Assembly (NCBI GenBank): GCA_044892525.1
Contig: CM097885.1
Location: forward strand, 8,868,001 to 8,932,000
DNA length: 64,000 bases
Direction of reading: 5' to 3'
Source of the DNA: Schmidtea polychroa
Taxonomy: Eukaryota
The translations under genes were made by a program, and so were the position numbers. Of this stretch, positions 28,475 through 46,035 are shown in pieces (the first letter of the stretch is position 1; every line of letters begins with the position of its first letter). Below the pieces are notes generated by a model. The model had not been told where the DNA came from. It saw nothing but the letters and a program-made list of their open reading frames with translations, and made no database searches.

Positions 28475-29029
28475 GTAAGAAATTTTTAAATTAATATAAA
28501 TAAGATTTTATATGGTTTTTATAATATCTCCCCTTCGGAGGATTTAGGAAACTATTTTTAATAGTGATTTCTGATCTGATATTTCCTTTAGAAAATTACT
28601 TTTGAGTTATCTAGAAAATGCATATTTTGACGAAAAAGAATTTTAAATTGTGAAAAAATTTATTTTGAAATTCAACCAAATTCAGTCGAATAATACACAA
28701 ATCAAATTTGATAAATAAAAAAAAATTTATGAATGCTAAAAATGAAAATAAAAATATTTAAAAAATTCATTAATATAAAAACCGAATGGTCGGTAATAAT
28801 TAACGAATTTGATTGTAATATCATTTATTTACAAAAGCTAATATGAGATAGTAGATGGATTGGTCACCGCTAGATCAGGTCACCGCTAGATCACCTACCC
28901 CCCCCCCCACCCCCCCCCCCGGCAGGAAAAATTTTTTTAAGATTTTTTTTTCAAGGTCAAATTTTTAACAAAGACAATGACTCATCAAGGTCATTGAAAC
29001 AAAGAACTTTTTTTTTTGTTTTAATTATC

Positions 29030-30095
29030 GTGATCTAGCGGTGACCTACCTTTTGACTTCCCAGAACTTTTTGAGTTTTCAAAATTATTTAAATATTTAT
29101 ACATCATTTTGAAGGCCAGACGAAAATCTATCTTTTAAGCCATAGAAATAATTTTTATCATTAGTGGTGCAAAAGTTATTAATTTTTTAGTCAGACACTA
29201 ATTTGGTTAAAATTATTATTATTTTTCAAAATATTATTATTTTCAAGGTCATATTATTATTAAGTGATCTAGCGGTGACCTACCTTTTGACTTCCCAGAA
29301 CCTTTTGAGTTTTCAAAATTATTTAAATATTTATACATCATTTTGAAGGCCAGACGAAAATCTATCTTTTAAGCCATAGAAATAATTTTTATCATCAGTG
29401 GTACAAAAGTTATTAATTTTTTAGTCAGACACTAATTTGGTTAAAATTATTATTATTTTTCAAAAATATTATTAAGTGATCTAGCGGTGACCTACCTTTT
29501 GACTTCCCAGAACTTTTTCAATTTTCAAAATTATTTAAATATTTATACATCATTTTGAAGGCCAGACGAAAATCTATCTTTTAAGCCATAGAAATAATTT
29601 TTATCATTAGTGGTACAAAAGTTATTAATTTTTTAGTCAGACACTAATTTGGTTAAAATTATTATTATTTTTCAAAATATTATTATTTTCAAGGTCATAT
29701 TATTATTAAGTGATCTAGCGGTGACCTACCTTTTGACTTCCCAGAACTTTTTGAGTTTTCAAAATTATTTAAATATTTATACATTATTTTGAAGGCCAGT
29801 CGAAAATCTATCTTTTGAGCCATTAAAATAATTTTTATCATCAGTGGTACAAAAGTTATTAATTTTTTAGTCAGACACTAATTTGGTTAAAATTATTATT
29901 ATTTTTCAAAAATATTATTAAGTGATCTAGCGGTGACCTACCTTTTGACTTCCCAGAACTTTTTGAGTTTTCAAAATTATTTAAATATTTATACATTATT
30001 TTGAAGGCCAGTCGAAAATCTATCTTTTAAGCCATAGAAATAATTTTTATCATCAGTGGTACAAAAGTTATTAATTTTTTAGTCAGAGACTGATT
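29030..30095. repeat. Five tandem units, alternating 234/212 bp, each starting GTGATCTAGCGGTGACC
   Basis: Unit starts at 29030, 29264, 29476, 29710 and 29922; mirrored at ~44275-45340. Confidence 0.9.
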
Positions 30096-30178
30096 TATGG
30101 TTAAAATTTTCAAAAATGTTCAAAATTTACTAAGTAATTTGCGGGTAATTTGTCAATCATCCAATCAGGTACGACTTT

Positions 30179-30713
30179 GATTATTATTATTATTATTATT
30201 ATTATTATTATTATTATTATTATTATTATTATTATTATTATTATTATTATTATTATTATTATTATTATTATTATTATTATTATTATTATTATTATTATTA
30301 TTATTATTATTATTATTATTATTATTATTATTATTATTATTATTATTATTATTATTATTATTATTATTATTATTATTATTATTATTATTATTATTATTAT
30401 TATTATTATTATTATTATTATTATTATTATTATTATTATTATTATTATTATTATTATTATTATTATTATTATTATTATTATTAATATTATTATTATTATT
30501 ATTAATATTATTATTATTATTATTATTATTATTATTATTATTATTATTATTATTATTATTATTATTATTATTATTATTATTATTATTATTATTATTATTA
30601 TTATTATTATTATTATTATTATTATTATTATTATTATTATTAATATTATTATTATTATTATTATTATTATTATTATTATTATTATTATTATTATTATTAT
30701 TATTATTATTATT
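30179..30713. repeat. (TTA)n microsatellite of ~0.53 kb
   Basis: Directly visible; mirror (AAT)n at 43658-44187. Confidence 0.97.
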
Positions 30714-43657: not shown

Positions 43658-44187
43658 AATAATAATAATAATAATAATAATAATAATAATAATAATAATA
43701 ATAATAATAATAATAATAATAATAATAATAATAATAATAATAATAATAATAATAATAATAATAATAATAATAATAATAATAATAATAATAATAATAATAA
43801 TAATAATAATAATAATAATAATAATAATAATAATAATAATAATAATAATAATAATAATAATAATAATATTAATAATAATAATAATAATATTAATAATAAT
43901 AATAATAATAATAATAATAATAATAATAATAATAATAATAATAATAATAATAATAATAATAATAATAATAATAATAATAATAATAATAATAATAATAATA
44001 ATAATAATAATAATAATAATAATAATAATAATAATAATAATAATAATAATAATAATAATAATAATAATAATAATAATAATAATAATAATAATAATAATAA
44101 TAATAATAATAATAATAATAATAATAATAATAATAATAATAATAATAATAATAATAATAATAATAATAATAATAATAATAATAATAA
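43658..44187. repeat. (AAT)n microsatellite
   Basis: Directly visible; mirror of 30179-30713. Confidence 0.97.
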
Positions 44188-44274
44188 TCAAAGTCGTACC
44201 TGATTGGATGATTGACAAATTACCCGCAAATTACTTAGTAAATTTTGAACATTTTTGAAAATTTTAACCATAAA

Positions 44275-45340
44275 TCAGTCTCTGACTAAAAAATTAATAA
44301 CTTTTGTACCACTGATGATAAAAATTATTTCTATGGCTTAAAAGATAGATTTTCGACTGGCCTTCAAAATAATGTATAAATATTTAAATAATTTTGAAAA
44401 CTCAAAAAGTTCTGGGAAGTCAAAAGGTAGGTCACCGCTAGATCACTTAATAATATTTTTGAAAAATAATAATAATTTTAACCAAATTAGTGTCTGACTA
44501 AAAAATTAATAACTTTTGTACCACTGATGATAAAAATTATTTTAATGGCTCAAAAGATAGATTTTCGACTGGCCTTCAAAATAATGTATAAATATTTAAA
44601 TAATTTTGAAAACTCAAAAAGTTCTGGGAAGTCAAAAGGTAGGTCACCGCTAGATCACTTAATAATAATATGACCTTGAAAATAATAATATTTTGAAAAA
44701 TAATAATAATTTTAACCAAATTAGTGTCTGACTAAAAAATTAATAACTTTTGTACCACTAATGATAAAAATTATTTCTATGGCTTAAAAGATAGATTTTC
44801 GTCTGGCCTTCAAAATGATGTATAAATATTTAAATAATTTTGAAAATTGAAAAAGTTCTGGGAAGTCAAAAGGTAGGTCACCGCTAGATCACTTAATAAT
44901 ATTTTTGAAAAATAATAATAATTTTAACCAAATTAGTGTCTGACTAAAAAATTAATAACTTTTGTACCACTGATGATAAAAATTATTTCTATGGCTTAAA
45001 AGATAGATTTTCGTCTGGCCTTCAAAATGATGTATAAATATTTAAATAATTTTGAAAACTCAAAAGGTTCTGGGAAGTCAAAAGGTAGGTCACCGCTAGA
45101 TCACTTAATAATAATATGACCTTGAAAATAATAATATTTTGAAAAATAATAATAATTTTAACCAAATTAGTGTCTGACTAAAAAATTAATAACTTTTGCA
45201 CCACTAATGATAAAAATTATTTCTATGGCTTAAAAGATAGATTTTCGTCTGGCCTTCAAAATGATGTATAAATATTTAAATAATTTTGAAAACTCAAAAA
45301 GTTCTGGGAAGTCAAAAGGTAGGTCACCGCTAGATCACGA
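44275..45340. repeat. Mirror copy of the five-unit tandem array of C
   Basis: Five GGTCACCGCTAGATCAC-ending units; reverse complement of 29030-30095. Confidence 0.9.
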
Positions 45341-46035
45341 TAATTAAAACAAAAAAAAAAGTTCTTTGTTTCAATGACCTTGATGAGTCATTGTCTTTGT
45401 TAAAAATTTGACCTTGAAAAAAAAATCTTAAAAAAATTTTTCCTGCCGGGGGGGGGGGTGGGGGGGGGGGGGTAGGTGATCTAGCGGTGACCTGATCTAG
45501 CGGTGACCAATCCATCTACTTGAGATAATTTATGGCACACTCATTTGATAAATATACTGATGTAGTAAGTGTATAATATAACAGATTGCAATCCTATATA
45601 TTTAAGTGTGAATAAAAAATACGTACAATATGAACGTGGCCTGTTTTCAAAGCATTCTCCAGACGGAATTATGAAGTTTATATGTGAAACCGTCAAAGAT
45701 GTTTAATTAAGGTAAGTATATAGTAAAAGCTATATAAATAAAAAACTTTACATTATGATTTCTATCTGATTATATCCAAATATTAAAGACAAATTACTCT
45801 TAGGAAACTTTGTTTTTGAAAATTCATTTTTAATAGCAATTTTTGAGAGATTTTGATAGAAAAAAAATGTCAACGTTGGAGAGAAATGTACAAGAACTGC
45901 TATTTAATTAGTTAGGAACTCAAAGATTACGGAAACCAAATGTTAAATCTTCATTTTGAAAGATTTTGTCACAAATTCATTCTTGGAACAAATTTGAAAA
46001 GGTTTGGTAAATCTTAACAGCAATTTTATTTGCAG

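Follow-up and report, generated by a model that had tools for sequence, protein, structure and literature searches.

What is a near-perfect palindrome of 16.7 kb doing in an intron of a PDI-like host gene of Schmidtea polychroa, and what keeps its two arms alike? The window analysed here is the whole 64,000-nucleotide stretch of contig CM097885.1 (assembly GCA_044892525.1, forward-strand positions 8,868,001 to 8,932,000), and unprefixed coordinates refer to it. According to PMC4028283, PMC6431247 and PMC3014272, Polinton/Maverick elements measure 15-20 kb, have terminal inverted repeats of 584-744 bp, and create a 6-bp duplication. They encode a protein-primed polymerase and an integrase (PMC4028283 and PMC6431247), and PMC4028283 indicates that replication and particle formation of animal Polintons are known mostly from gene content. 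The first-pass annotation of this locus saw one end of a Polinton genome copied back on itself and recently inserted by a helper. Here we propose, as the probable reading, that the palindrome is a recent helper-dependent Polinton/Maverick satellite with the helper's exact ends and no core genes, copied and inserted by helper enzymes. It is a non-autonomous Polinton derivative, as distinct from an autonomous Polinton and from the product of a single copy-back step, and would work like an integrated snap-back satellite.

Self-comparison returned a single inverted match, 28850-36840 against 45520-37530, at 99.76% identity. It delimits a left arm of 7,991 bp (28850..36840, forward strand), a spacer or loop of 689 bp (36841..37529), one junction of which has 81 exact genomic matches, and a right arm of 7,991 bp mirroring the left (37530..45520, reverse strand), so that 96% of the element's length is paired. 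The coordinates and lengths given by the first-pass annotation are thereby reproduced. Its description of arms with few differences holds as to their near-identity, while the differences are more exactly three substitutions outside simple repeats (31046, 36665 and 36821), four within an (ATT)n tract, and five length slips in homopolymers or microsatellites. Between identical arms, inversion of the spacer yields the same molecule, and the flip-flop isomer test once proposed is then undefined. Polinton ends follow an AG...CT rule. The termini here are AGTAG...CTACT and lie between two copies of TGAGAT on the forward strand (28844..28849, the left copy, which is present once at the empty site, and 45521..45526), so that the Polinton hallmarks of a 6-bp target-site duplication (TSD) and inverted AG...CT termini are both present, as had been claimed.

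The insertion divides a PDI-like gene in one of two near-identical copies of the region. Exon 2 (28155..28474, forward strand, Pfam Thioredoxin) ends on a codon boundary and exon 3 (46036..46176, forward strand) begins on one, in phase with exon 2, which bears out the reported continuity of the gene across the element. In this gene (27960-28474) the first thioredoxin domain contains CxxS, and the later one, on C3 and in the C1 duplicate, contains CxxC. The second region copy, at C1 9.15-9.20 Mb, is 98.7-100% identical and contains one TGAGAT and no element; an empty-site allele, for which PCR had been suggested, is thus found within the assembly itself. Short-read contigs from three runs (X1, X2 and X5) were placed on this empty site, a fourth run (X7) yielding none there. 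Contigs of X1 end at 2194 and start at 2188 of the empty-site sequence, exactly flanking the hexamer, and the X1 contig that bridges the site has a depth of 191 against 360 and 310 in its flanks. A contig of X2 likewise begins at 2188, and in X5, from another study, a single contig spans the site uninterrupted. Forks in two runs and an uninterrupted site in the third fit an insertion that is heterozygous in some samples and missing from another; the sample used for the assembly may be that of X1. Because the assembly holds an empty site and contigs fork at the duplication, the palindrome is a real, young and still polymorphic insertion, in agreement with the recent insertion first claimed.

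The assembly around it is locally tangled, which would favour an artefact, either a fold-back of the assembly or arms that the assembly process rendered identical. A gap of 240 N (47972-48211) lies 2.45 kb downstream of the element, and the right arm, the spacer and the 2.45-kb flank (45521-47971) recur on C3 at 16.72-16.78 Mb, where the 3' exons of the host gene continue. Either a mis-join or an element-mediated translocation would account for this, and a search for a partner of the other flank of this copy (C3:16.76M) found none; since it shares the arm and flank of the window, it is not counted as independent. Short-read contigs over the palindrome centre are heavily fragmented, owing to copy number. 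An artefact is nonetheless hardly credible. The short-read and assembly evidence contradicts it through the perfect TSD, the empty site with its one TGAGAT and the contig forks at the TSD, the same centre is found in copies with other flanks, and private alleles stand on both arms, unlike the outcome of polishing to the family majority.

No polymerase, integrase or capsid frame was found within the 16.7 kb by the open-frame list and profile scans, as the first-pass annotation had stated, and the packaging ATPase and protease genes present in helpers are absent as well. The element is not strictly gene-less, since each arm has, overlooked by that annotation, a predicted RING-finger (C3HC4, PF13920) frame of 172 codons, at 33058..33576 on the forward strand, with its first in-frame ATG at codon 65, and again, from the open-frame list, at 40795..41313 on the reverse strand. 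Against three polymerase-linked copies its pN/pS is 0.44-0.98, over too few sites to speak for or against selection.

Where would the missing proteins come from? The exact 37-bp terminus has 109 forward and 116 reverse matches in the genome (control, 0). Pairs within 30 kb among the matches listed (100 of 225), together with four others, make up a sample of 44 other paired AGTAG...CTACT elements, drawn from a many-copy family with multiple independent insertions that have duplications of their own. The TSD is matched in 35 of the 44 and unmatched in nine, which indicates that recombination or mis-assembly mixes the arms of some elements. Two family members about 158 kb apart (L051/L052 and L031/L032, C1 42.65-42.85 Mb) have swapped TSDs, with GACATA on the outer and TCTCTT on the inner sides, a pattern that recalls the integration of a circle by recombination, or else an assembly loop.

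Ten of the 44 carry homologues of polymerase, protease, capsid, integrase and ATPase genes, presence being judged by tblastn coverage and not by frame intactness. The helper Polintons that the first-pass annotation implied therefore exist, with identical ends. Their protease, integrase, ATPase and TBP were identified by Pfam, and their double jelly-roll capsid and polymerase by Atlas look-alikes. The polymerase has no DNA_pol_B_2 match in Pfam, PHROGs or PDB, and its identity leans also on motifs that we take to be those of such an enzyme. An (ATT)n tract, in frame and variable in length, interrupts the helper integrase frame (L034:1551-2786; L134:4501-5598) and is a candidate intron or low-complexity insertion. 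The TBP-like gene belongs to a Polinton cassette that is seen in the window at 58589-59050 and in a helper at L034:4011-4472 (Pfam TBP, E 7e-14 for the helper copy). Given the shared ends, the TSD and the lack of genes, the 16.7-kb element was probably mobilised in trans by helper proteins.

The non-autonomous members outnumber the complete ones by 34 to 10. Among them, 27 share the fold-back core of the 16.7-kb element, folding at several recurrent centres, and seven derive directly from a helper. Two of these seven are snap-backs with loops of 8 and 9 nt, folded at a natural 6-bp and at a 2-bp inverted repeat, two are copy-backs with a jump, and the remaining three are deletion-like or ambiguous. 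Snap-back and copy-back genomes thus do arise in this family, as the first-pass annotation supposed, with four fresh helper products among the 44; the fold-back products at C1:98.84M and C1:79.01M are examples. Some members have two centres or three arms (L129-L131, C2 18.2 Mb; L054-L056, C1 59.6 Mb), which suggests repeated fold-back within one molecule.

Is the 16.7-kb element, then, itself the outcome of one recent event in which an end of a present helper was copied back? In favour of this, the family does contain copy-back products and the element has the helper's exact ends. The arms of four other family members are colinear with one end of a standard genome; that of the 16.7-kb element is not. 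Its outer segment (28850..30877, forward strand) is of helper type, with the AGTAG end, poly-C, subterminal repeats and (ATT)n, is at least 90% identical to gene-complete elements, and includes a 234/212-bp (446-bp) tandem array (29030..30108, forward strand) whose copy number varies among family members. It is followed on the same strand by an AT-rich mosaic of microsatellites and short modules (30878..32731), the modules recurring between the genes of helpers as well as in their ends, mostly at 67-96% identity, and by a RING cassette (32733..33577) that matches the polymerase-adjacent cassette of a sister Polinton family at 88% identity but has the opposite orientation with respect to the end. 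The rest of the arm (33578..36840) is a non-coding core with very many genomic copies and no Pfam or Rfam match. For 33601-36840, a six-frame Pfam scan gave nothing credible and Rfam nothing, and the copies found by genome search are stop-riddled only; an LRR-like appearance of the core was not confirmed. A first look counted 3,027 candidate copies of the spacer and 8,654 of the core.

Compared with the ten gene-complete elements, only 2,462 of the 8,680 bases of arm and spacer match at 90% or more, mostly in the first 2 kb, and 3,475 at 70% or more; for about 3.95 kb no source was found in complete elements or in the other loci compared. None of the ten same-end elements has the RING cassette. 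Three elements of the sister terminus type carry it next to the polymerase gene, pointing outward, and in the 16.7-kb palindrome it is inverted and points inward. One locus, L195, has a polymerase gene with outward-pointing RING genes on both sides and looks like a polymerase-carrying element with extended inverted arms. The same centre and core recur in independent insertions, under at least three terminus types. The mosaic arm and the recurring centre argue against a single fresh copy-back, and the claim that one genome end was copied back on itself, already contradicted by the 2,462 bases, is very improbable. The element is better read as an old mosaic core that bears the ends of the present helper and belongs to an older propagating lineage.

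Another of the terminus types that share this core is present in the window. A second palindrome at 13334-22412 (9,079 bp, 2.7-kb arms, TSD AATAAC) has different Polinton-type ends, shares the core and one junction with the centre of the main element, and is present in both region copies. At 53371-62637 lies a Polinton derivative of 9.3 kb (TSD AACAAT) whose ends are of a third type; it has partial polymerase and integrase frames, an ATPase and other genes. Frame lists mark further mobile remnants at 2310-3143, 6220-6981, 25902-26955, 48492-50782 and 52296-52706, which by eye we take to be a Tc1-like transposase frame, hAT-like pieces and Polinton gene fragments.

The arms of the family evolve in concert. 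In three non-repetitive segments, compared across the 24, 21 and 18 elements whose two arms could both be recovered (the C3:16.76M copy excluded), minor alleles stand on both arms or on one arm in ratios of 184 to 8, 132 to 18 and 220 to 5, or 536 to 31 when pooled, these being occurrences and not independent events. Private alleles are on both arms in 21 cases and on one in nine, and mean differences are 0.3-0.8 within elements against 11-19 between them. In four copies of the same centre type, again excluding C3:16.76M, 71 variable sites are symmetric in each copy, and a single site, which lies 19 bp from the loop, differs between the arms in every one of the four. This mismatch (36821..36821 in the window, 19 bp from the spacer) is carried by five of the six copies of the centre type and missing from the sixth. 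Other centre types carry the other letter at the equivalent position, which marks a derived change that was inherited uncorrected across insertions; they have inherited arm-specific sites of their own at 29 bp (three of five copies) and 3 bp from the loop. Counts of arm mismatches binned by distance, from which C3:16.76M was likewise left out, give no usable p-value: misaligned tandem units swell the outer bins, and the inner one counts inherited sites more than once and takes in bases of the loop.

How might such a pattern arise? During strand displacement, the growing strand would turn back on itself or take the displaced strand as its template. Such an event at a short inverted repeat would give rise to a new palindrome, and the four fresh derivatives suggest that it has done so. 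In an existing palindrome the switch would fall just past the loop, being easy once 20-30 bases of the second arm have been made; one arm would be re-copied from the other, and only its first 20-30 bp would retain arm-specific letters. Such re-copying would also turn one newly captured end into two, by which an old core could move between helper families. This step would account for the symmetric variants, the spared loop-proximal letters and the swapping of ends between helpers, and the inherited mismatch 19 bp out is what re-copying one arm from the other predicts. The helper's protein-primed polymerase is likely to do the copying and its integrase the insertion.

The main rival, which we consider unlikely, leaves the satellite family as it is and has the host equalise the arms, by mismatch repair of a folded single strand or by gene conversion in the chromosome, known for Y-chromosome palindromes. 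It would leave a similar pattern, and sequence does not single out the enzyme that equalises the arms. Host repair or conversion would also be weaker beside the loop, predicting the same loop-proximal mismatches, and tolerates unequal tandem arrays. The terminal array differs in length between the arms of many family copies, which strict whole-arm re-copying does not predict unless slippage came later. In the window element the arrays are equal on both sides, which counts against host equalisation. So does the youth of the insertion, still polymorphic, whose arms yet differ at 2 of about 2,760 sites where its nearest independent relatives (C3:16.76M excluded) differ at 12-18, as do the fresh fold-backs, which point to template switching within the family.

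Size bears on a further alternative. Median lengths are 18.4 kb for the ten complete elements, 17.1 kb for 26 members of the lineage including the window's, and 16.1 kb for the seven direct derivatives. Leaving out the C3:16.76M copy and a composite C4 copy, 28 of 33 non-autonomous elements lie within 0.70-1.25 times the helper median and one is under half of it, a loose match to the unit length expected by the first-pass annotation. Among the best 100 of 1,218 matches, unclassified and judged by eye, sister-terminus pairs are mostly 10-24 kb. These lengths suggest a size floor, perhaps imposed by packaging, the weakest inference in the scheme of helper-driven copying. Short derivatives exist, one of 4.9 kb with the same ends and the 9.1-kb palindrome of another end type in the window, and count against that scheme. 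So do the core without a matching parent, the nine elements with unmatched TSDs, and the copies that lack the mismatch at 19 bp (one of six) or at 29 bp (two of five).

Foldback elements such as Galileo and FB resemble the 16.7-kb element in their very long inverted arms with internal tandem repeats, although their arms are five to ten times shorter. By analogy, integrase might excise and reinsert the element and host replication amplify it, with no role for a polymerase, and integrase alone could explain the 6-bp duplication. We regard this as improbable. Cut-and-paste gives no reason for arm equalisation and leaves unexplained both the rarity of short derivatives and the helper snap-backs with their 8-9-nt loops. 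Nor was a cut-and-paste transposase partner with matching ends found, the same-end elements being Polintons; the element differs from Foldback elements in having Polinton ends, a 6-bp duplication and no P-type transposase partner.

The preferred reading, a satellite copied by its helper, places the element between known systems. It shares AG...CT ends, a 6-bp duplication and a 15-20 kb size with Polinton/Maverick elements but lacks their core genes, and its arms measure 8 kb against the helpers' own 1.2-2.3 kb. Like snap-back and copy-back defective genomes it is a near-full-length palindrome around a small unique centre, and the four fresh helper derivatives fit the definitions in PMC13506859, which describes copy-backs chiefly in negative-sense RNA viruses; unlike them the 16.7-kb element has a mosaic arm, sits integrated in the genome as a heritable sequence, and belongs to a long-lived lineage of many copies. 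Tetrahymena rDNA is also a palindrome, of about 21 kb, which arises where a short inverted repeat flanks a small spacer (PMC5182062), but through a programmed host process at a broken chromosome end and not as a mobile element. Literature searches on Polinton/Maverick/adintovirus palindromes, snap-back/copy-back genomes and hairpins, Repbase not included, returned no description of such elements, and the accessible parts of PMC10120064, PMC9683012, 10.1101/2024.01.15.575659 and 10.1101/2022.05.25.493380 contain none. The presence of many 13-22-kb palindromes, with unmatched flanks in 9 of 44, matters for genome stability and assembly. Non-autonomous Polintons are reportedly described in the original Polinton paper, and similar entries may exist in Repbase.

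This family turns questions of Polinton replication and particle formation into measurements on natural DNA. The replication intermediate can be read from its fold-back junctions and pattern of arm correction, and packaging from the lower length limit of its gene-less satellites; a polymorphic insertion means that the system was active very recently. We tentatively entertain a bolder possibility, to which we give rather less than an even chance, that these are heritable hairpin satellite viruses, unit-length palindromes packaged by Polinton capsids that rebuild one arm from the other in each cycle and hop between helper families through single new ends. If so, the mismatches close to the loop would directly record, in the genome, Polinton replication by strand displacement, and the size floor of the palindromes would be a record of particle formation.
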